From IMG/VR virus record IMGVR_UViG_2541047901_000009: a stretch of 44,558 nt of DNA. The stretch is one strand, 5' to 3'. Under the pieces are notes generated by a model. The model had not been told where the DNA came from, did no database searches, and saw only the letters and a list, made by a program, of their open reading frames with translations. Source of the DNA: a virus. Its lineage: Duplodnaviria > Heunggongvirae > Uroviricota > Caudoviricetes. Position 1 is the stretch's first letter. Each line of letters starts with the position of its first letter. Below, piece by piece: positions 30,101 through 40,503 of the stretch. The position numbers and the translations under genes were made by a program.

Positions 30101-30273
30101 TGTCAGGAGTCCTGAATAGTGATTAGAGGAGTCACATGTCGGCATCAGTTTCCCGACGATGCGCATCCTCCGCCATCAGTCCCGGATGGCTTATCACTGA
30201 CACAACAGCACCTTAGCGAATCGCGGGGCGCGACTCAGTAGCCTTGCCGTGTATTCATCACGGCGAGGTATTC

Positions 30274-32046
30274 ATGACCATCACCACAGACACCACTCTT
30301 TTACACGACCCGCGTCGTCAGGCGGCGCTGCTGTACTGGCAGGGATTTTCCGTGCCGCAGATTGCCGCCATGTTGCAGATGAAACGCCCGACGGTGCAGA
30401 GCTGGAAACAGCGCGACGGCTGGGACAGCGTTGCTCCCATCAGCCGTGTCGAAATGAGTCTGGAAGCGCGGCTGACCCAGCTCATCATCAAACCGCAGAA
30501 AACCGGTGGTGACTTCAAGGAAATTGACCTGCTGGGACGCCAGATTGAACGACTGGCACGGGTAAACCGCTACAGTCAGACCGGCAACGAGGCAGACCTT
30601 AATCCGAACGTCGCTAACCGCAACAAAGGCGGGCGTCGCAAACCGAAAAAGAATTTTTTCAGTGACGAGGCCATCGAAAAGCTGGAGCAGATTTTCTTTG
30701 AGCAGTCTTTCGAATATCAGTTGCACTGGTATCGCGCCGGGCTTGAGCACCGCATCCGCGATATCCTGAAATCCCGCCAGATTGGCGCGACGTTTTATTT
30801 TTCCCGCGAGGCGCTGCTGCGCGCCCTGAAAACCGGTCATAACCAGATTTTTCTGTCGGCCAGTAAAACGCAGGCGTATGTGTTCCGCGAATACATCATC
30901 GCCTTTGCCCGGCTGGTTGACGTTGACCTGACCGGTGACCCGATTGTCCTGGGCAATAACGGCGCAAAACTGATTTTTCTCGGCACCAACTCCAACACCG
31001 CACAGAGCCATAACGGCGACCTGTACGTCGACGAGATTTTCTGGATCCCGAATTTTCAGGTACTGCGTAAGGTGGCATCAGGTATGGCCTCACAGAGTCA
31101 CCTGCGCTCGACCTATTTCTCCACCCCGTCCACGCTGGCGCACGACGCCTACCCGTTCTGGTCGGGTGAACTGTTCAACCGGGGACGCGCCAGCGCCGCC
31201 GAACGCGTGGAAATCGACGTCAGTCATAACGCCCTTGCCGGAGGTCTTCTCTGTGCGGACGGCCAGTGGCGGCAGATTGTCACCATTGAGGACGCCCTGA
31301 AAGGCGGCTGCACGCTGTTCGACATTGAGCAGCTCAAACGTGAAAACAGCGCCGACGATTTTAAAAACCTGTTCATGTGTGAATTTGTTGACGACAAGGC
31401 GTCGGTGTTCCCGTTCGAGGAGCTGCAACGCTGCATGGTCGACACGCTGGAAGAATGGGAAGACTATGCGCCGTTTGCCGCGAATCCGTTCGGCTCCCGC
31501 CCGGTATGGATTGGTTACGACCCGTCACACCGTGGCGACAGCGCCGGATGCGTGGTACTGGCACCGCCGGTGGTGGCCGGTGGCAAATTCAGAATACTTG
31601 AGCGTCACCAGTGGAAAGGCATGGACTTTGCCACTCAGGCGGAATCCATCCGCAAACTCACCGAAAAATACAACGTCGAATACATCGGTATTGATGCCAC
31701 CGGCCTCGGTGTCGGCGTGTTCCAGCTCGTGCGCTCGTTCTATCCCGCCGCGCGCGACATCCGCTACACGCCGGAAATGAAAACCGCAATGGTGCTCAAG
31801 GCCAAAGACGTTATCCGCCGTGGCTGTCTGGAATATGACGTCAGCGCCACCGACATCACCAGCTCGTTTATGGCTATCCGCAAGACCATGACCAGCAGCG
31901 GACGCAGCGCCACCTATGAGGCCAGCCGCAGCGAGGAAGCCAGCCACGCCGACCTCGCCTGGGCGACCATGCACGCCCTGTTAAATGAGCCACTCACCGC
32001 AGGTATCAGCACCCCGCTGACATCCACCATTCTGGAGTTTTACTGA
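30274..32046 (+). CDS. P: P2 gpP terminase large (ATPase) subunit
   Basis: 590 aa from the internal Met (MTITTDTTLL...), divergent from O across the late-promoter region. Confidence 0.92.
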   Translation: MTITTDTTLLHDPRRQAALLYWQGFSVPQIAAMLQMKRPTVQSWKQRDGWDSVAPISRVEMSLEARLTQLIIKPQKTGGDFKEIDLLGRQIERLARVNRYSQTGNEADLNPNVANRNKGGRRKPKKNFFSDEAIEKLEQIFFEQSFEYQLHWYRAGLEHRIRDILKSRQIGATFYFSREALLRALKTGHNQIFLSASKTQAYVFREYIIAFARLVDVDLTGDPIVLGNNGAKLIFLGTNSNTAQSHNGDLYVDEIFWIPNFQVLRKVASGMASQSHLRSTYFSTPSTLAHDAYPFWSGELFNRGRASAAERVEIDVSHNALAGGLLCADGQWRQIVTIEDALKGGCTLFDIEQLKRENSADDFKNLFMCEFVDDKASVFPFEELQRCMVDTLEEWEDYAPFAANPFGSRPVWIGYDPSHRGDSAGCVVLAPPVVAGGKFRILERHQWKGMDFATQAESIRKLTEKYNVEYIGIDATGLGVGVFQLVRSFYPAARDIRYTPEMKTAMVLKAKDVIRRGCLEYDVSATDITSSFMAIRKTMTSSGRSATYEASRSEEASHADLAWATMHALLNEPLTAGISTPLTSTILEFY

Positions 32047-32135: not shown

Positions 32136-32885
32136 TCACTGATCTCCTTCGGTCAACGGTGATTGTATTTTCCGCATTGATTCTCCTTTAAGTTCGATCT
32201 TGATACTGCCATGAACCAGTCGATCTAGGATGGCATCCGCATGTGTGGAGTCTCCGATCATTTTGTACCAGTTTTCCACCGGCAACTGGCTCACTACGAT
32301 GATTGAGCCTCGTTGGTACATCAGATCCACTATTTCCAGCAGGTCGCTACGCTGTTCTGATGAGAGAGGTTCCAGCCCCCAGTCATCCAGAAGCAGCAGA
32401 TCGCTATTATTCAGCCTGGTCAAAAGTTTGCTGTATCTTCCATCAGCATGCCCCTGATAGCACTGTTCCATCAGCGCTTTAAGGCGATAATAGTAGACCT
32501 TGTATCCCTGTCGGCAGGCATTATGACCAAGTGCACATGCCAGGAACGTTTTACCGCTGCCGGTGGCCCCGGTCAGTAAAATATTTTGTTTCAGGGTTAA
32601 CCAGTTTCCCTGACTGAGTGAACGGATGAGGGCCCTGTCCAGCCCTCTATTGTTACGATAATCCAGCTTTGATAACTCAGCATTAAGTCTGAACCGTGCA
32701 TGTTTGATCAGACGCTCTGCCTTCCTGTTTTCACGGCAGGTTAGTTCTTCTGCTGTCAGTAATGACAGGCGTTCTTCGAAGCCCAGCTCCTGGTATGTGC
32801 CCGGCTGAGCAAGTTGCTTTTTAAGCGCATCACGGAAGCCGGTGAGTTTAAGTGCGGTCAGTTGTTCGTAAAGATGATTCATCAT
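32136..32885 (-). CDS. istB: IS21-family helper ATPase IstB
   Basis: 249 aa with Walker A LLTGATGSGKTFLACALG and Walker B LLLLDDWG. Confidence 0.93.
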   Translation of the reverse strand: MMNHLYEQLTALKLTGFRDALKKQLAQPGTYQELGFEERLSLLTAEELTCRENRKAERLIKHARFRLNAELSKLDYRNNRGLDRALIRSLSQGNWLTLKQNILLTGATGSGKTFLACALGHNACRQGYKVYYYRLKALMEQCYQGHADGRYSKLLTRLNNSDLLLLDDWGLEPLSSEQRSDLLEIVDLMYQRGSIIVVSQLPVENWYKMIGDSTHADAILDRLVHGSIKIELKGESMRKIQSPLTEGDQ

Positions 32886-32896
32886 TGGATCCCGTA

Positions 32897-34438
32897 TCAG
32901 TGGTAATACTCACTGCCGCGTACGTTTTCGTGTTCCATCGTGGATAACAGATCTGGTTTTGGATCCTGAACAGGTTGTTTATCCAGACCTTTTTCCAGGA
33001 TCGATTTAATACCTGACAGACGCCATACCTTTGTTTTCAGAGCTCTTGCACATGCTGCATTAAGTCTGGCTTTACTGTATTTTTTATGAAGGTTCAGGAG
33101 TCCAAGGCAGAAGCGATAGCTTTGTTCCGGATGTGGACGAGAGTTCAGTATATGAAGCACATAACTATGAGTTTCACTGCCTATGTGCCCCGCCCATTCC
33201 AGAAGACGCTCTGGCGTCCAGGTGGCATGCTGTCGATGAGCTTCAGGCATGTGCTCGTTGCGGGTACTGTAGCCATAAGTACGCTTGCGCGGGTGCACAG
33301 CAACCTCCTGCCCCTGATTGAAGAGTCTTACCAGTTCTCCGGAGATCCATGCTTCCAGTTGCTGGCCTAACAGCGAACATGGAACCGAGTAGTAATGTTT
33401 GTCGATTTCCACGTGGTAATCGGCATGAACTCTGACTTTCTTCACCAGGGTGTAACTGTAACTGGCTTCAGGAAGAGGCTTCAGTGCGGGTTTATCAAGC
33501 TGGATGAAGAGTTCTGCACGTGAATAACCCAACTTCTGCATTATTTTGTTATTCAGTCTTTCCAGCAACTCCCGAATGCGCTGATTAAGCGATGCAAGGC
33601 TGTAGAAGATCTCATGCCTGATTCGGGCCATGATCCAGCGTTCAACAACCTGAACGCCAACTTCAGCTTTGGCTTTATCTTTCGGTTTACGTGGCCGCGC
33701 AGGCAAAACTGCGACATTATAATGCTCAAGCATCTGCTGGTAGGTAGGGTTAACGTCAGGATCATACTTACATGCCCTGGATGTGGCGCTTTTCAGATTG
33801 TCCGGAACAACAAGTTCAGGAACGCCACCCAACCACTGGAAGCAGCGAACATGACTCATCACCCAGTCTTCAAGCTGCTGAGACCAGGTGGCCTCTGCCC
33901 ATGTGTAACTTGATGCCCCGAGAACAGCTACGATGACCTGAGCAGTTCTTATTTCTCCGGTCTCAGGGTCGGTAACGCCAACGGTAGGTCCACAGTAATC
34001 AACGAAAAGTTTTTCGCCAGCTTTATGTACCTGACGCATTGATGGTGAAGTGGTTTTGAGCCATTCACGGTACATCCGGCAGTAATGGTTATAGCTGTAA
34101 AAACCGCCTGGATTACGCTCACAGTATTCTTCCCAGAGTAGCTGCAGCGTCACGCATTTATTACGCAGTTCCCGGTGTACTGTAGCCCAGTCAGGCAGAG
34201 AGTGCTTCTTCATCTTAACCTGGGTCTGAAGGAACGCATGTTTTAGTTTTGTATCATCCCATCCTGTAGGTAAGGGCCACTGCTTTATGCCAAGTTGAGC
34301 CGCCCGATTAGCATATCTGGATACAACGGAAGGGGAGATTGCAAGACTACGACCAATTTGTCGATGGCTGAGTCCAACACCGTATTTAAGCCTAAGAATT
34401 TCTTTAAGTTTTCTCATAGAAATTGGAACTGTTGGCAT
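32897..34438 (-). CDS. istA: IS21-family transposase IstA
   Basis: 513 aa with an N-terminal HTH and DDE integrase core, immediately upstream of istB. Confidence 0.92.
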   Translation of the reverse strand: MPTVPISMRKLKEILRLKYGVGLSHRQIGRSLAISPSVVSRYANRAAQLGIKQWPLPTGWDDTKLKHAFLQTQVKMKKHSLPDWATVHRELRNKCVTLQLLWEEYCERNPGGFYSYNHYCRMYREWLKTTSPSMRQVHKAGEKLFVDYCGPTVGVTDPETGEIRTAQVIVAVLGASSYTWAEATWSQQLEDWVMSHVRCFQWLGGVPELVVPDNLKSATSRACKYDPDVNPTYQQMLEHYNVAVLPARPRKPKDKAKAEVGVQVVERWIMARIRHEIFYSLASLNQRIRELLERLNNKIMQKLGYSRAELFIQLDKPALKPLPEASYSYTLVKKVRVHADYHVEIDKHYYSVPCSLLGQQLEAWISGELVRLFNQGQEVAVHPRKRTYGYSTRNEHMPEAHRQHATWTPERLLEWAGHIGSETHSYVLHILNSRPHPEQSYRFCLGLLNLHKKYSKARLNAACARALKTKVWRLSGIKSILEKGLDKQPVQDPKPDLLSTMEHENVRGSEYYH

Positions 34439-34632: not shown

Positions 34633-35667
34633 ATGAGCAAGAAAAAAGGGAAAACACCGCAACCTGCGGCAAAAACAATGACTGCCAGCGCCCCGAAAAT
34701 GGAGGCATTCACCTTTGGTGAGCCGGTACCGGTACTCGACCGCCGTGACATTCTGGATTATGTCGAATGCATCAGTAACGGCAGATGGTATGAGCCGCCG
34801 GTCAGCTTTACCGGTCTGGCAAAAAGCCTGCGTGCTGCCGTGCATCACAGCTCACCGATTTACGTCAAACGTAATATTCTGGCTTCAACGTTTATCCCGC
34901 ACCCGTGGCTTTCCCAGCAGGATTTCAGCCGCTTTGTGCTGGATTTTCTGGTGTTCGGTAATGCGTTTCTGGAAAAGCGTTACAGCACCACCGGTAAGGT
35001 CATCAGACTGGAAACCTCACCGGCAAAATATACCCGCCGTGGTGTGGAAGAGGATGTTTACTGGTGGGTGCCGTCCTTCAACGAGCCGACAGCCTTCGCA
35101 CCCGGCTCCGTGTTTCACCTGCTGGAGCCGGATATTAATCAGGAGTTGTACGGCCTGCCAGAATATCTCAGCGCCCTTAACTCTGCCTGGCTGAATGAGT
35201 CGGCCACGCTGTTCCGCCGCAAGTATTACGAAAATGGCGCACATGCCGGATACATCATGTACGTCACCGATGCCGTGCAGGATCGCAACGATATCGAAAT
35301 GCTTCGCGAAAACATGGTTAAGTCGAAAGGCCGCAATAACTTTAAAAATCTGTTTCTCTATGCCCCGCAGGGGAAAGCCGACGGCATTAAAATTATCCCG
35401 CTCAGTGAAGTGGCGACGAAGGACGATTTTTTTAATATCAAAAAAGCCAGCGCCGCTGACCTGCTGGACGCACACCGCATCCCCTTTCAGTTGATGGGCG
35501 GCAAGCCGGAGAACGTCGGGTCGCTGGGTGATATTGAGAAAGTGGCAAAGGTCTTTGTCCGCAATGAGCTTATCCCGCTACAGGACAGGATCCGCGAGAT
35601 AAACGGCTGGCTCGGTCAGGAGGTCATCCGCTTTAAAAACTACTCACTGGACACTGACAACGACTGA
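34633..35667 (+). CDS. Q: P2 gpQ portal protein
   Basis: 344 aa from the ATG at 34633 (MSKKKGKT...). This ATG lies inside the IS21 target-site duplication. Confidence 0.9.
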   Translation: MSKKKGKTPQPAAKTMTASAPKMEAFTFGEPVPVLDRRDILDYVECISNGRWYEPPVSFTGLAKSLRAAVHHSSPIYVKRNILASTFIPHPWLSQQDFSRFVLDFLVFGNAFLEKRYSTTGKVIRLETSPAKYTRRGVEEDVYWWVPSFNEPTAFAPGSVFHLLEPDINQELYGLPEYLSALNSAWLNESATLFRRKYYENGAHAGYIMYVTDAVQDRNDIEMLRENMVKSKGRNNFKNLFLYAPQGKADGIKIIPLSEVATKDDFFNIKKASAADLLDAHRIPFQLMGGKPENVGSLGDIEKVAKVFVRNELIPLQDRIREINGWLGQEVIRFKNYSLDTDND

Positions 35668-35695: not shown

Positions 35696-35834
35696 CATCC
35701 CGTCATCACGCCCTCACACGCTCACCACCGCACAAAACACCCCTTAGACACACCAACGCCCCGACGCACAATCTAAACGCCATCACGACGCGCTCAGACG
35801 CTGAAAAAATAAAATCAGCACCACCGCCAGCGCG

Positions 35835-35853
35835 CAGTGCTTTCCCCGCCTCG
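35835..35853. other. P2 cos site (19-nt cohesive-end sequence)
   Basis: GTGCTTTCCCCGCCTCGCC is the reverse complement of the P2 cohesive end GGCGAGGCGGGGAAAGCAC as I remember it, located after Q as expected. Confidence 0.8.
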
Positions 35854-36006
35854 CCCGCCCGCTTCATGGGTCGGTTTGAATGCAGTTGAATTACAACTAC
35901 CAAACCAAGCAATCCCTACTATTACGCAGAAAATGCATACTGAAATACCTCGTGCAAATTGATGCAGCTAAGTATGCATAGGTTTTATGCCTCAACGTAT
36001 ACGTTA

Positions 36007-37839
36007 TCAAACAGAGCCCTGTTCAAATACAGTATCAAAATATGGTAGGAGAGGATAAGCACACAGAAAGAAAATCAGGATGCATGCATATGTCGTTGTT
36101 TCATCGTAACAAGCATTAGTATATAAATTACCATGTGCTAATTTATGTCTTAAGGTTGCCCCACTCTTTCTATTAAAAAGAACATCGATAGTTAAAACAA
36201 GATTCTTAGAAAAGATACTTTCCAAATCATCTCTGCATTTATCTAGAAGCTGAGAAATACTTGTTGACTCCTCTAATCCCTTATCCAAATATCTAGTAGC
36301 ATCCTTTCCACTAAGCTCATAATAATAACGAACCATACCTTCCATTTGTGGTATTAAAAGATAAGCTGCACTGATGTAATCTCCCTGCCATAATTTGTAA
36401 AAGCCCAAATTAAAAATCTCCCTAAACTCCGGCTTGACAATTGGACTAGTTGTAACTAATTTAACGAATGTTGACAACGTCAAGCCATGTTCTTGAGAAA
36501 GTACATAGCGAGCAGGTTCAAAGACACCGTTTACAAAAATCTTATGAGTAATCTCGAAATTTCTTAGATATTGATCAATAACAACATCATCACTCATATC
36601 TTTTTTATTATTCAACGGCGGGATTGTATATACCTTACGCCCACTCTCATCATTAATTTCTGTTCCAACAAAACTAGAGAATAAACTTTTTTCTGATAAT
36701 CTTAAAACTTGCTCCCTCATGCTTTCAATATTTTCAATCGGTGTTTCACGCATTAAAACTTTGAATATATCGGGCAAAGAACGCCCCGTCAGTTTTTTTT
36801 CACTTTCAGCAACCAAGTCACTAATATCAATAGAATGGCTTAAAGTGACATATTCACTCCTTACTTCTTCTCTCAAATTAGCAAGTTGTTCCTTTAAATC
36901 TTCTATCTGTTGGCTATCACCACCATACTGTCTTAATTCAGAGATAGCTGTTCTTAACCAAGAGATCTTACCCATATTATCAGGTCGATCTGTTGCAACT
37001 TTAATAGTAATATTTGCAGATGCCAGTTTACATCTCTTGGCACGTTCATACTCACCATTTTTTTCATAAATAACTGCACTTGTCATATAAAGTGATTTTA
37101 CAGCATCATAATATTTTTTATCTTTATGCTGCTCAGCCATCTTCTCAGCATTTTCCGCATACTGCAGATTATACCCATCAAAATCACGCACCATAAACCA
37201 AGTCAAATTATTGAAACCTTCAAAGATTAATCTTTCATTTTGAATACTATAAAGAGAATGAATGGCATTTTTAATCGCCATGTTTCCTTCTGATTTTCTA
37301 GGGTAGACCATTTTATTAATGTGCAAAGCCCTAGCAATATAATCACGAGCAAAAATAAAGCAATTTAAATCACTTTCATCCATGCTTTCGTTTTTTATTA
37401 TTAGTTTTTCAATTGCTATATTTAGCATTTCAGCATAGGAATCAATTGCTTTAATTGCCACGTCTTTGTTTTTCCGGTTATTACACCAAACAACATCATA
37501 TATTCTTGATAACAAAAATGGATTGGTTATTTTTTGAGAAACATATAAAAGACAGTCATTCACCTGCTCATCAAAATCTTCAGGCAATATTGATCTTTTA
37601 TTACCCCAAATCATTTGGGGTTCAAATGATGGAGTGTTGTTAACAACTTGCAAATTGAAACTATATAGCATACCAAAAAGAGATGCTAATTTTTTCTCTT
37701 TGGGGTTTCCTGATGATTCAGCAATCCCATCCAGATATTTTTTTATTTTATGTGCATGAAATGTAACTGGTATATGCATAAAAACACTATAATCTAGTGT
37801 TTCAAGCTCTTCCCTTGTAAGAACAAAGATATCATTCAT
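36007..37839 (-). CDS. Hypothetical protein, about 610 aa, at the P2 tin/old cargo position; C-terminal Rx4H motif
   Basis: Long ORF, very AT-rich by eye. Start taken at the ATG for MNDIFVLTREEL, preceded by AAGGTG; the ORF-track start is a TTG at 37941. C-terminal ATLRHKLAHGNLY fits an R-x4-H pattern. No Walker A seen. Confidence 0.65.
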   Translation of the reverse strand: MNDIFVLTREELETLDYSVFMHIPVTFHAHKIKKYLDGIAESSGNPKEKKLASLFGMLYSFNLQVVNNTPSFEPQMIWGNKRSILPEDFDEQVNDCLLYVSQKITNPFLLSRIYDVVWCNNRKNKDVAIKAIDSYAEMLNIAIEKLIIKNESMDESDLNCFIFARDYIARALHINKMVYPRKSEGNMAIKNAIHSLYSIQNERLIFEGFNNLTWFMVRDFDGYNLQYAENAEKMAEQHKDKKYYDAVKSLYMTSAVIYEKNGEYERAKRCKLASANITIKVATDRPDNMGKISWLRTAISELRQYGGDSQQIEDLKEQLANLREEVRSEYVTLSHSIDISDLVAESEKKLTGRSLPDIFKVLMRETPIENIESMREQVLRLSEKSLFSSFVGTEINDESGRKVYTIPPLNNKKDMSDDVVIDQYLRNFEITHKIFVNGVFEPARYVLSQEHGLTLSTFVKLVTTSPIVKPEFREIFNLGFYKLWQGDYISAAYLLIPQMEGMVRYYYELSGKDATRYLDKGLEESTSISQLLDKCRDDLESIFSKNLVLTIDVLFNRKSGATLRHKLAHGNLYTNACYDETTTYACILIFFLCAYPLLPYFDTVFEQGSV

Positions 37840-37955
37840 CGTTTTCACCTTTTTCAGTATAAATTTGCACACATTATTAGCAACATAATTATCAATAGTT
37901 AACACATGTAGATAAACAGCAATTTTACTATTATGCAACAAATTAAATCAGATGT

Positions 37956-40238
37956 TTATTGCTCTGAATAACAATAAAACCAACTCCACTCATCAGCGAC
38001 CGGATACGTAAATTTTTTCCCGTTGTAATCTACGGTCGCACCACGCGCCAGCGCCTCAAGCTCCCATCGCTGCGGCCTGATACCGTTCTGAGCAAGGTCA
38101 ACGCGGATACGGGTAATTTGCATTCTTTCCGACCGGGTCAGTCTGGCCGATGGCGCTATTTCATGCGGTTTTAACGGGCTTCCGTTTCTTTGCTGACGGT
38201 TTGGTGTTATCAGGTCGTGTTTTAATGCGCCCCTGAGCGCCCTCACGACCTCCGGGTCATTCCATTCGATAACACCGTCATCAACCAGATTAAGCACTGC
38301 TGCGGCGTGTTCAGAAGGTGTGGGAGCCGGTAACGAAGTATCACCACTGGTGAGCTTTCCACAGTTATTGACAGGACTCCGAGGCGCGGCGATGCCGCTT
38401 TTTAAAGTCAAAGGCTCCACGACCGGAACTTTCGGAACAATGCGCCAGTCCGTCGTTCTGGTGATATGAATATGACGCGCGCCGAGATGCGGCGCGTAAA
38501 TGCCGACCACTCTCTCGACTTCTTCCTCGTACTCGTTAACTTCATCCGACGGGCTACGGGCGACTCTGACAGTCTGGCAATCGCGCGGAACATTTGCCCC
38601 ACCCTGCGCACTGATATACAACGCAAAATCGCCACTGTCTGCGGCAGCGCGTGCAGCCTCGACGCGTTCGTCAAACTCATCAGCAATGCTGACGCCGCGA
38701 GGCAATTTGCGTAGTTCACGGTAAGCCCCCATTGTCGGCAGACCAACCGTTTTAAATTGCGGGATGCGCCACGTTGACGCCCATGCAGTAACAGCCGCGG
38801 CAGTATCTTTCAGAGGTCTGCCGGTATCGTTATCGAGCTGACCATCCAGTGCATAGCCGTCGATATTTTTTGAAATGTATTTCGCGATATATCCCGCAGC
38901 ACCGCCCCGGTTAAGGTGCTTTGCCTGAAAACGGTTTCGCGCGGCTCCTCTTTCGTCACCATCCTCTTTGAGCGCATAGCGACGCATGATTTCGATAATC
39001 TGATTACGCTGGCGTGGATTACAAAAAAGCATCATATGCCAGTGCGGCGTTCCGTCGTGGTGTGGCTCGACGACACGCAAACCGTAGACCTGTAAATCAT
39101 TATCCTTGAATGCCGTGCGCATCAGGCTCCAGATGCGGCAGAGATAACGCTGCGCATCCTTTGGATTAAATGCCTCATCGTTCCAGCCGTGATTTAGCTG
39201 GACGGTTTTACTTTCGCCTTTTCCGACCTGACGTGTCGGGTGATACTTTGACGGCGCGGTCAGCGTGATAAACATCCCCACATCACCCTCTGCGGCGGCG
39301 TAACGCTCAATACCGGCAATGGTGTTCATCAGCTCCATCCGGCGAATTTCAGGATTAGAAATACTTCCCATCACCTTACTGATAAGGTCGATGCGCTCGC
39401 CGGTTTCCCTGTTTTCAAGGTCACACGATTTAAGAAATTCCAGATTTGCCTGGCGGCGCGCACGCACATCACGAATGGCATGTTTACTGGCATAAGGAGA
39501 ACGGTCTTTATTGACCTCCCCGACAGCAATCAGTAACGCTTCATGCCAGCGCATACGCTGACCTTTAAGCTGATGAGTCCACCACTCATCGTTAAACAGG
39601 CGGGCAATGGCAGAATATGCCTGCCTCGTGGTCATCTGTCCTTTACGGTATTTTTTCCAGTAAAGCGGGGAAATATTGAAAGCACGTGCAGCGCCAGCAA
39701 CATGACCATACAGGTGAGCCTGAGCCTCATCCGTAAACAGTGATTCTTTTTCGCCATGCGCATCCCCCCAGGCATCGCTGATTTCCTCATACATCATGAA
39801 AAGCTGCGATGAGATACGGGCGGCAAACTTTTTCAGCTCCTTATCATTCATCCCCGGCAGACGCGCATAATGGTCACGCTCTGCCAGAAACAGCAACGAC
39901 GCGTCGGTGTTCATTTCATGGCGCTGATTCACACGCTCAATGCGCGGCCATAAACGACGCTGAAAAGTGGATGTGAGGAAATAAAACCCGTGCACCGGGC
40001 TTTTATTGCGCCGGATGTAGTCATAGCGTGAAGTAAACAGCGAGCGCAAAAAGTAAGGCAGGCGATTAATCGTGGATAAAACACCTTGCACCTGACGCAT
40101 CTCGTCACGTGTAAGGGGTCTTTCGCGCCCGACGGCCTCGCGTGGCGCATTCCATGCATAAGCACCGGTAAACGTCTCACCGGTGCCTGCGGCAAATGCT
40201 GACGGAGGGACAAAACGCCCGGAGGCTTTAACGGCCAT
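37956..40238 (-). CDS. A: P2 gpA replication initiation protein (rolling-circle nicking endonuclease)
   Basis: About 760 aa from the ATG for MAVKASGRF, in the P2 A position. The ORF-track start at 40280 is a TTG. Confidence 0.9.
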   Translation of the reverse strand: MAVKASGRFVPPSAFAAGTGETFTGAYAWNAPREAVGRERPLTRDEMRQVQGVLSTINRLPYFLRSLFTSRYDYIRRNKSPVHGFYFLTSTFQRRLWPRIERVNQRHEMNTDASLLFLAERDHYARLPGMNDKELKKFAARISSQLFMMYEEISDAWGDAHGEKESLFTDEAQAHLYGHVAGAARAFNISPLYWKKYRKGQMTTRQAYSAIARLFNDEWWTHQLKGQRMRWHEALLIAVGEVNKDRSPYASKHAIRDVRARRQANLEFLKSCDLENRETGERIDLISKVMGSISNPEIRRMELMNTIAGIERYAAAEGDVGMFITLTAPSKYHPTRQVGKGESKTVQLNHGWNDEAFNPKDAQRYLCRIWSLMRTAFKDNDLQVYGLRVVEPHHDGTPHWHMMLFCNPRQRNQIIEIMRRYALKEDGDERGAARNRFQAKHLNRGGAAGYIAKYISKNIDGYALDGQLDNDTGRPLKDTAAAVTAWASTWRIPQFKTVGLPTMGAYRELRKLPRGVSIADEFDERVEAARAAADSGDFALYISAQGGANVPRDCQTVRVARSPSDEVNEYEEEVERVVGIYAPHLGARHIHITRTTDWRIVPKVPVVEPLTLKSGIAAPRSPVNNCGKLTSGDTSLPAPTPSEHAAAVLNLVDDGVIEWNDPEVVRALRGALKHDLITPNRQQRNGSPLKPHEIAPSARLTRSERMQITRIRVDLAQNGIRPQRWELEALARGATVDYNGKKFTYPVADEWSWFYCYSEQ

Positions 40239-40503
40239 ATGAGCCAAAAGCCTCTGAACAACGCCTGCTGAGTTGCTCAACCTGCGCGTTTAAATCAGCG
40301 AAAGACTTTGCGCTTCCGGTCAGAATATCGTGATGCATCAGGCCGGAAACGAGCTGGCTTAATTTCGGGTAATAACCAACCACTGCCAGCCATTCCTGAC
40401 CGGCGTTTTTACCGCTTTCCGCTCTCTTTTTCTCGTGGAGAATAAACTGAAAGCTGTCACTGGTAACGACATAACGTTCGCCAATTTCAATACGAATACT
40501 CAT
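40228..40503 (-). CDS. Small protein at the P2 orf83 position, 91 aa
   Basis: Part of a compact chain of overlapping small ORFs between B and A. Confidence 0.6.
   Translation of the reverse strand: MSIRIEIGERYVVTSDSFQFILHEKKRAESGKNAGQEWLAVVGYYPKLSQLVSGLMHHDILTGSAKSFADLNAQVEQLSRRCSEAFGSYGR

Follow-up and report, generated by a model that had tools for sequence, protein, structure and literature searches.

Two bodies of earlier work frame the gene described here, one concerning HEPN nucleases and the other concerning the cargo of P2-like prophages. HEPN domains are recognized by an R-x4-6-H motif in which a polar N, D or H directly follows the arginine, accompanied by an upstream acidic Ex3[KR] motif in helix 2, and their fold is an up-down bundle of four helices in which a variable insert separates helix 2 from helix 3 and the motif sits either where helix 3 ends or where the H3-H4 loop begins (Anantharaman et al., 2013, PMC3710099). 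The C6orf70 (ERMARD) family, whose Pfam counterpart is DUF4209, was classed as HEPN in the same study and predicted to be catalytically active; catalytic activity is ascribed there to its bacterial versions, which are joined to helical (TPR) repeats and located near R-M operons (PMC3710099). Non-catalytic HEPNs typically lack Rx4-6H, and some HEPN families are non-catalytic binders (PMC3710099).

Among HEPN proteins that act alone in phage defence, two have recently been described in mechanistic terms. DARNA (PD-T7-3) is a single-protein HEPN tRNase that is activated by ssDNA which phage SSB presents (bioRxiv 10.64898/2026.02.22.705581), and ApeA is a HEPN anticodon nuclease triggered by 5'-phosphorylated deoxydinucleotides through a pocket that lies apart from the active site (bioRxiv 10.64898/2026.01.26.701840). 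In both of these single HEPN proteins a large non-catalytic domain gates tRNA cleavage (10.64898/2026.02.22.705581; 10.64898/2026.01.26.701840), and dimerization that creates a composite HEPN active site has been described for DARNA, Csm6 and HepT. In Csm6 and DARNA the two Rx4H motifs lie opposite one another at a distance of about 8 Å, and RNA cut by a HEPN enzyme should carry 2',3'-cyclic phosphate ends. Proteins with HEPN_Apea also occur at the P4 hotspot, according to the survey by Rousset et al. (2022, PMC9122126).

The same survey defined the gpA-gpQ hotspot of P2-like prophages and catalogued its cargo, defence genes included (Rousset et al., 2022, PMC9122126), although this cargo is not always defensive, as partition systems and a cytolethal distending toxin are found at the same site (Rousset et al., 2022, PMC9122126). 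In its Table S5B, system 13, labelled "DUF4209", is assigned to the P2 hotspot with 193 occurrences, and system 55, of the ORF612 type, is listed with 76 occurrences (PMC9122126). The study also separates validated systems (Table S2A) from "additional tested systems" (Table S2B); three of eight additional P2 systems were active, namely DUF4238, a three-gene hp+hp+hp system and DprA-PRTase (PMC9122126). A 2026 preprint by related authors reports that most of the untested hotspot cargo is protective when challenged with a set of 28 phages.

The window, by which we mean the whole 44,558-nt stretch of viral DNA analyzed here, carries a single 610-aa ORF in this slot (Table 1). Its position downstream of gene A and adjoining cos, where P2 has tin and old, had been described in the earlier note, and the flanking genes together with the cos sequence establish it as the slot between gpA and gpQ. 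The cos sequence, GGCGAGGCGGGGAAAGCAC, is the 19-nt P2 cohesive-end sequence, and the identical 19-mer is present in hotspot clones of Table S2 (Rousset et al., 2022, PMC9122126). An IS has damaged the prophage of the window.

Table 1. Coordinates of the hotspot gene, its predicted domains and motifs, and its flanking features in the window.
Feature	Position	Strand	Remarks
Portal gene Q	34633..35667	(+)	Downstream flank of the hotspot, past cos
P2-type cos sequence GGCGAGGCGGGGAAAGCAC	35837..35855	(-)	About 150 nt downstream of the 610-aa ORF
CDS, 610 aa and stop	36007..37839	(-)	ORF call; DUF7380, helical middle and DUF4209/predicted HEPN
Predicted HEPN domain, C-terminal, approximately Pfam DUF4209	36022..36432	(-)	aa 470-606; Pfam, model
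R564-H565-K-L-A-H569, putative Rx4H catalytic motif of HEPN RNases	36133..36150	(-)	End of helix 3
E500-x3-R504 (E500-G-M-V-R504), putative HEPN accessory acidic Ex3[KR]	36328..36342	(-)	Helix 2
Central alpha-helical repeat (TPR/MIT-like solenoid) and linker, aa 185-415	36595..37287	(-)	
DUF7380 domain, N-terminal, aa 4-184	37288..37830	(-)	Pfam E 1.2e-39, 75/75 members, model
Intergenic region, AT-rich, 116 nt	37840..37955	(-)	Holds RBS AGGTGA and sigma-70-like hexamers
Replication endonuclease gene A	37956..40280	(-)	Upstream flank of the hotspot

The gene itself has been encountered before. Its DNA is 100% identical to ECS88_RS12480 of E. coli S88 (WP_000997854.1), and Table S2B lists a plasmid pFR103 that holds one gene from E. 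coli S88, locus P2, under the name "Putative HEPN" (PMC9122126). The printed part of the pFR103 insert is the window sequence, covering the 3' end of gene A, the intergenic region and part of the gene, and the system 13 protein differs from the window protein by isolated substitutions only over the 146 residues compared. PDC-S39 (a PADLOC family discussed below), system 13 and pFR103 represent the same protein as that of the window, and each of these sources gives it candidate status. The pFR103 trial, in which the gene was placed with its native upstream region in K-12 and challenged with an eight-phage panel, yielded no reported protection and stands with the systems for which no activity was seen (Rousset et al., 2022, PMC9122126) and is the only published test that we found for the gene. 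Such negatives may be expression artefacts, given that one PARIS homologue was active only on induction (Rousset et al., 2022, PMC9122126). The gene, the HEPN idea and the candidacy for defence are therefore already on record, and it is the analysis of conservation, fold and genomic context that goes further here. The novelty implied by the earlier note does not hold, since the protein type had been catalogued and the S88 gene cloned as "Putative HEPN" in 2022.

Nor does that note's statement that the protein could not be placed in any family hold; it belongs to DUF7380 + DUF4209, to PADLOC PDC-S39 and to PHROG 5183. The N-terminal DUF7380 domain (PF24098) is matched at 136.4 bits, far above the threshold of 27 bits. 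PDC-S39, a candidate single-gene defence family in PADLOC for which a full-length match is required, is recognized by two profiles that both span nearly the entire protein, PDLC05011 (E 8.3e-85, aa 40-598) and PDLC05012 (E 1.3e-83, aa 7-596). PHROG 5183 is a family of unknown function in PHROG, and NCBIfam gave no match for the window protein. While word-indexed homologue searches returned just 21 close relatives, the family became visible through an exhaustive profile search, which recovered 3,357 cluster representatives at E ≤1e-3 and 2,141 at E ≤1e-10; the best 150 of the 3,357 representatives are nearly all 600-640 aa long and match end to end.

The C-terminal DUF4209 (PF13910) assignment is less direct. 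On the window protein this profile aligns to aa 524-590 and scores 19.5 bits at full length and 22.0 bits with the isolated C-terminus, just short of the cutoff of 22.3, which is nevertheless passed by seven of nine isolated C-termini of the family. Across 75 diverse members DUF4209 was found in 65 (E up to 0.01, best 9e-13), with DUF7380 in all of them. Since the homologues match DUF4209, the window protein is by transitivity a divergent but genuine DUF7380 + DUF4209 member. Consistent with this placement, its C-terminus matches DUF4209/ERMARD from the P-Q-x-E-x3-R helix to R-H-x-x-A-H, and its helical-repeat middle and the defence-rich neighbourhoods of its family resemble the bacterial DUF4209 versions. 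It departs from ERMARD in setting, as the eukaryotic members are predicted ER-membrane RNA-degradation proteins whereas the window protein is prophage cargo. Searches of the literature for DUF7380, PF24098 or WP_000997854 found no publication, those for PDC-S39 found it solely in two genome surveys, as an assignment made by PADLOC, and those for ERMARD together with HEPN gave nothing; reports of an RNase assay, toxicity data or a trigger were not found for any member of the family.

Family membership, conserved motifs and modelled fold together make it very probable that the C-terminal domain is a HEPN domain. The earlier note had pointed to the peptide ATLRHKLAHG, which is present and contains R564-x4-H569, and had read R-x4-6-H as a HEPN signature. 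Taken bare, the motif is at chance level: shuffling the window protein produces R-x4-H in 41% of cases and R-x4-6-H in 80%, so that the motif by itself is no evidence and its significance comes solely from conservation. That conservation is strong. We aligned the window protein with 133 relatives (134 sequences, taken from the best 150 of the 3,357 representatives, with a median identity of 23% to the window protein) and found R564, H569 and E500 each 100% conserved and R504 99% conserved. The arginine and histidine, whose absence from homologues would have spoken against the reading, are thus retained in 134/134 aligned sequences, and the HEPN reading of the motif stands by virtue of its relatives. 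E500 and R504 are likewise invariant or nearly so in two further alignments, and R-[HN]-x-hydrophobic-A-H is present in 153/153 full-length relatives.

Structure prediction of the C-terminus, which the note had proposed as a check, returned a model with a HEPN-like helix layout. In the AlphaFold models (mean pLDDT 80 for the whole protein and 76.5 over its last 213 aa) the predicted helices are H1 470-485, H2 488-509, H3 545-569, ending exactly at H569, and H4 580-604; the H2-H3 insert (510-544) is poorly ordered, and the H3-H4 loop spans 570-579. The helix at the C-terminus is hydrophobic over aa 587-605. The published sequence and fold features of HEPN domains, that is, an Rx4-6H with a polar residue after the arginine, an Ex3[KR], a bundle with an insert and the position of the motif, all fit. 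Comparison of the C-terminal model with the PDB by Foldseek gave no significant match (best E 0.94), and sequence-profile searches of the PDB returned designed or TPR helical repeats only and no HEPN. The predicted HEPN core is also the most conserved region of the protein, with a mean pairwise identity of 0.40 family-wide vs about 0.25 in the N-terminal and middle regions, and, within the P2 clade, of 0.77 vs 0.52-0.64 for the same regions. A conserved effector coupled to a faster-evolving sensor would be expected to give such a contrast.

The remainder of the protein may supply such a sensor. DUF7380 is modelled as helical with one beta-hairpin (aa 62-73), and seven of its residues (R82, D88, R112, D115, W118, Y135 and R170) are at least 93% conserved in the family. 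Farther along, D397 and G400 are retained within a second conserved beta-hairpin, at aa 393-406. The DUF7380 and middle regions resemble helical-repeat scaffolds only. We propose that DUF7380 acts as a sensor or regulatory domain, and its conserved polar cluster could, by analogy with ApeA, form a ligand pocket.

Comparison with the two mechanistically described proteins places the window protein beside them but in neither family. DARNA has its HEPN domain at the N-terminus of 456 aa, unlike the window protein, in which the predicted HEPN is C-terminal in 610 aa; this difference in size and domain order, together with the lack of a PADLOC PD-T7-3 match, led us to reject the identification of the window protein as DARNA. 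Dodecamers, ssDNA sensing and tRNA targets are features of DARNA of which we saw no sign in the window protein. Like ApeA it would be a stand-alone HEPN protein, for which defence has been shown in the case of ApeA and is a candidate function in the case of the window protein, but it belongs to a different family, as HEPN_Apea is not matched in Pfam or PADLOC. Across both comparisons, PADLOC is significant only for PDC-S39 and the Pfam matches do not include HEPN_Apea, placing the protein outside the DARNA and ApeA families. With tin and old of P2, which are prophage-expressed exclusion genes, the gene shares the position between gene A and cos, yet the proteins are unrelated: Old combines an ABC ATPase with a TOPRIM nuclease, Tin is without HEPN, and no homology of the window protein to the tin or old products was detected in Pfam, PADLOC, NCBIfam or PHROG.

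To describe the distribution of the gene, we surveyed complete E. coli genomes, of which 55 of 5,426 carry it, once each and on the chromosome. In 53 of these 55 the undisrupted ORF shows an identity of at least 99%, no pseudogene annotation appears among the 15 matches listed from complete E. coli genomes, and the RefSeq label among the matches listed is always "DUF7380 domain-containing protein". Phage vB_EcoM-569R9 holds a copy with 99% identity, and P2-EC46 has at the same locus the homologue ORF612, with 33% identity. Orthologues with 53-64% identity are located between gpA and gpQ in prophages of the P2-like and 186-like types, in Klebsiella, Kosakonia and a metagenome contig, and the closest protein cluster comprises 810 member sequences. 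Orthologues down to 48% identity remain full length and retain every catalytic residue, which indicates purifying selection.

More distant relatives were located with an alignment subset sharing PQLENSLR, which yielded 44 loci in Pseudomonas, Sphingomonas, Mesorhizobium, Rhodobacterales, cyanobacteria and others. These loci have no conserved partner gene, as no neighbour family occurs in more than four of the 44. Their neighbours include mobility genes (integrases, resolvases and recombinases) and known defence genes, comprising IetAS, the DISARM genes DrmC/DrmMI, type IIG R-M, AbiEii, TIR, a KAP NTPase and Hma. In the window, the flanks of the gene contain neither an RNA antitoxin nor a repeat array (no Rfam match, and only a weak 12-nt x2.8 repeat), and the adjacent tandem-repeat RNA antitoxin that characterizes type III toxin-antitoxin and AbiF-like systems is accordingly not seen. 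The description of the gene as single-gene cargo is upheld by the 44 distant loci without a conserved neighbour and by the lack of an RNA partner in the window, and this distribution, the neighbours and the absence of flanking RNA or repeats together lead us to regard it as a solitary mobile single-gene module that occurs amid defence genes.

Collectively, these observations lead us to favour, with moderate confidence, an autoinhibited single-polypeptide HEPN RNase that is accessory cargo of the gpA-cos-gpQ hotspot and would act by abortive infection. In a lysogen, the prophage-expressed protein would be kept inactive; upon infection, a cue would be sensed by the faster-evolving N-terminal DUF7380 and helical-repeat region, whereupon HEPN domains would pair or become unmasked to give a composite Rx4H active site. 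Metal-independent cleavage of host and/or phage RNA, for which tRNA anticodon loops provide the precedent, would then halt translation and abort the infection. We infer the RNase activity, the autoinhibition, the sensor role of the N-terminus, what triggers the protein, which RNA it cleaves and that infection is aborted. The occupation of a defence-hotspot slot in several prophages and the defence-rich neighbours count for a defence RNase; the negative pFR103 test, the null Foldseek result and the DUF4209 score below cutoff count against it.

The lack of protection in that test may also be due to the gene being inert hitch-hiking cargo in E. coli, recently transferred, AT-rich and poorly expressed or silenced. 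A GC content of 33% against 52% in the flanks fits this explanation, as does the general tendency of AT-rich foreign DNA in E. coli to be silenced by H-NS, and both the negative published test and the IS damage to the window's prophage agree with it. We nonetheless consider it quite unlikely, as an inert gene would sit poorly with an undisrupted ORF of at least 99% identity in nearly all of the E. coli genomes carrying it, with the absence of pseudogenes among the 15 matches listed, with the 810 sequences of the closest cluster and with the purifying selection indicated by the orthologues down to 48% identity. Alternatively, the protein may be an active HEPN RNase with a role other than broad anti-phage defence, which would instead serve rivalry with P4-like satellites, plasmids or other prophages, or would be an addiction or stress toxin that aids the prophage. 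No protection was reported against eight unrelated phages, the hotspot is known to include non-defensive genes (PMC9122126), and HEPN families are tied to many kinds of conflict system (Anantharaman et al., 2013, PMC3710099), all of which would suit a role of this type. However, the gene has no adjacent antitoxin gene or RNA and could be cloned alone, a combination which argues against a constitutive toxin, and most of what surrounds its relatives in distant genomes is anti-phage systems, such that we judge the mobile-element or addiction role unlikely.

An explanation of a different kind would deny the C-terminal domain its activity, making it a non-catalytic HEPN-like binder of RNA or nucleotides, or a scaffold, with the polar cluster of DUF7380 as the site of the real activity. 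Binder families exist among HEPNs (PMC3710099), and the seven residues of DUF7380 stand out in a domain that is otherwise only about 26% identical. Non-catalytic HEPNs, however, lose Rx4-6H, whereas here the arginine, the histidine and the glutamate of Ex3R are invariant in the 134 aligned sequences, taken from the best 150 of the 3,357 representatives, and the HEPN core is the best-conserved region of the protein. DUF7380 and the middle region, for their part, resemble helical-repeat scaffolds only; we therefore hold this explanation to be very improbable.

Extending the favoured reading of a defence RNase to the whole family is a more tentative step. The DUF7380-DUF4209 proteins (>3,300 clusters at 50% identity, in Proteobacteria and cyanobacteria) might constitute a single-protein abortive-infection RNase in which DUF7380 is a new infection sensor, its cue absent from the eight tested phages, and might represent the prokaryotic forerunner of ERMARD/C6orf70; we regard this as possible but doubtful. 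If it were true, the human ER protein ERMARD would join the eukaryotic RNases that descend from bacterial immunity. Should defence be shown, it would turn a large orphan family (PADLOC PDC-S39) into a single-gene immune system with experimental validation, offer DUF7380 as a new sensor domain to dissect and give a starting point for the function of ERMARD, the eukaryotic protein with DUF4209. For the gene of the window the re-examination has been mostly corrective, as the gene can be placed, the HEPN and defence ideas had been recorded earlier and one negative test exists; of what the earlier note put forward, the ORF, the hotspot position and the HEPN assignment hold, while the claim of an unplaceable protein and the implied novelty fall away.

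The gene was also described as an AT-rich ORF with its own RBS, which agrees with what we find. Its GC content is 0.332 and its GC3 0.252, vs a GC content of 0.53 in gene A and 0.52 in Q, and the RBS AGGTGA lies at 37845-37850. The longest reading of the ORF would begin at a TTG at 37941 (36007..37941, 644 aa, minus strand), but the ATG at 37839 is the likely start given the AGGTGA 5 nt upstream of it, the RefSeq annotation of S88 and the N-termini of 20 homologues. The upstream gap is present as reported, although it measures 116 nt from the stop of gene A and not 117. Within it lie two candidate pairs of sigma-70-like hexamers, TTAACT-18-AATAAT (37902-37873) and TTGCTA-16-TATACT (37883-37856), which are consensus-level pattern matches, and the weak 12-nt x2.8 repeat occupies 37862-37895.

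Across the family to which the 610-aa window protein belongs, seven DUF7380 residues (R82, D88, R112, D115, W118, Y135 and R170) are each kept in at least 93% of members, while the remainder of DUF7380 is only about 26% identical across the family. Just N-terminal of the HEPN region, a beta-hairpin carries D397 and G400, conserved at 98-100%. The residue cluster or the hairpin may form a ligand pocket or a regulatory loop; a search for a relative of known function returned none for either element.

The final helix of the protein, ILIFFLCAYPLLPYFDTVF, has a 19-residue Kyte-Doolittle mean of 1.78, against the classic threshold of 1.6 for a transmembrane segment, and 32% of family members also exceed 1.6, mostly inside the last 45 aa. 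This hydrophobic stretch may be no more than the fourth HEPN helix or a dimer interface; alternatively, by analogy with the tether predicted for the eukaryotic DUF4209 protein C6orf70/ERMARD, it may anchor the protein to a membrane.

A weak tandem repeat lies across the promoter-like hexamers in front of the HEPN gene. It has 2.8 copies of a 12-nt unit (77% matches, TRF score 38), reads ATGTTGCTAATT on the strand of the gene, and could be either an operator-like element or a chance occurrence in AT-rich DNA. Annotated starts disagree: GenBank phage ON470601 (7334-9265) uses an upstream TTG, giving 643 aa, whereas RefSeq/PGAP uses the ATG, giving 610 aa. Of the two, the ATG fits better with both the RBS and the alignments of homologues.

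Features of the window discussed here
Feature	Position	Strand	Remark
Terminase ORF	30244..32046	+	
ISEc12	32136-34438		IS21 family
istB	32136..32885	-	
istA	32897..34438	-	
Portal Q	34633..35667	+	
68-aa ORF	35706-35912	-	TTG start; overlaps cos region
Final helix	36025-36081		aa 587-605
Beta-hairpin	about 36622-36663		aa 393-406
DUF7380 residue cluster	about 37330-37596		aa 82-170
ATG start	37839		
TTG start	37941		
Tandem repeat	37862-37895		

The ISEc12 element lies precisely at the junction of the terminase gene with the portal gene, interrupting the P-Q late operon, and the window prophage is probably defective for packaging. In a genome of like arrangement, the annotation gives both ORFs as intact, and the terminase-IS-portal stretch has a match with at least 80% coverage in no fewer than 34 complete E. 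coli genomes. In E. coli S88, which carries an identical HEPN gene, an ISEc12 copy instead adjoins a truncated capsid gene N. The 68-aa ORF is probably spurious; phage ON470601 has a small ORF in the equivalent gene-to-Q interval, labelled "hypothetical protein."

The study that assayed the S88 HEPN gene included a second HEPN-type single-gene candidate, pFR83 "HEPN-TPR," found in a P4 hotspot of E. coli ATCC8739, which its Table S2B lists as tested but non-validated (Rousset et al., 2022, PMC9122126). HEPN proteins with helical repeats seem to be recurrent hotspot cargo missed by the eight-phage panel. Further uncharacterised hotspot cargo is found in a Kosakonia cowanii 186-like prophage (L055 9070-10675), where the DUF7380 gene is separated from portal Q by three extra ORFs of 286, 85, and 151 aa, none with Pfam matches. 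Two small ORFs also precede the DUF7380 gene in that hotspot.
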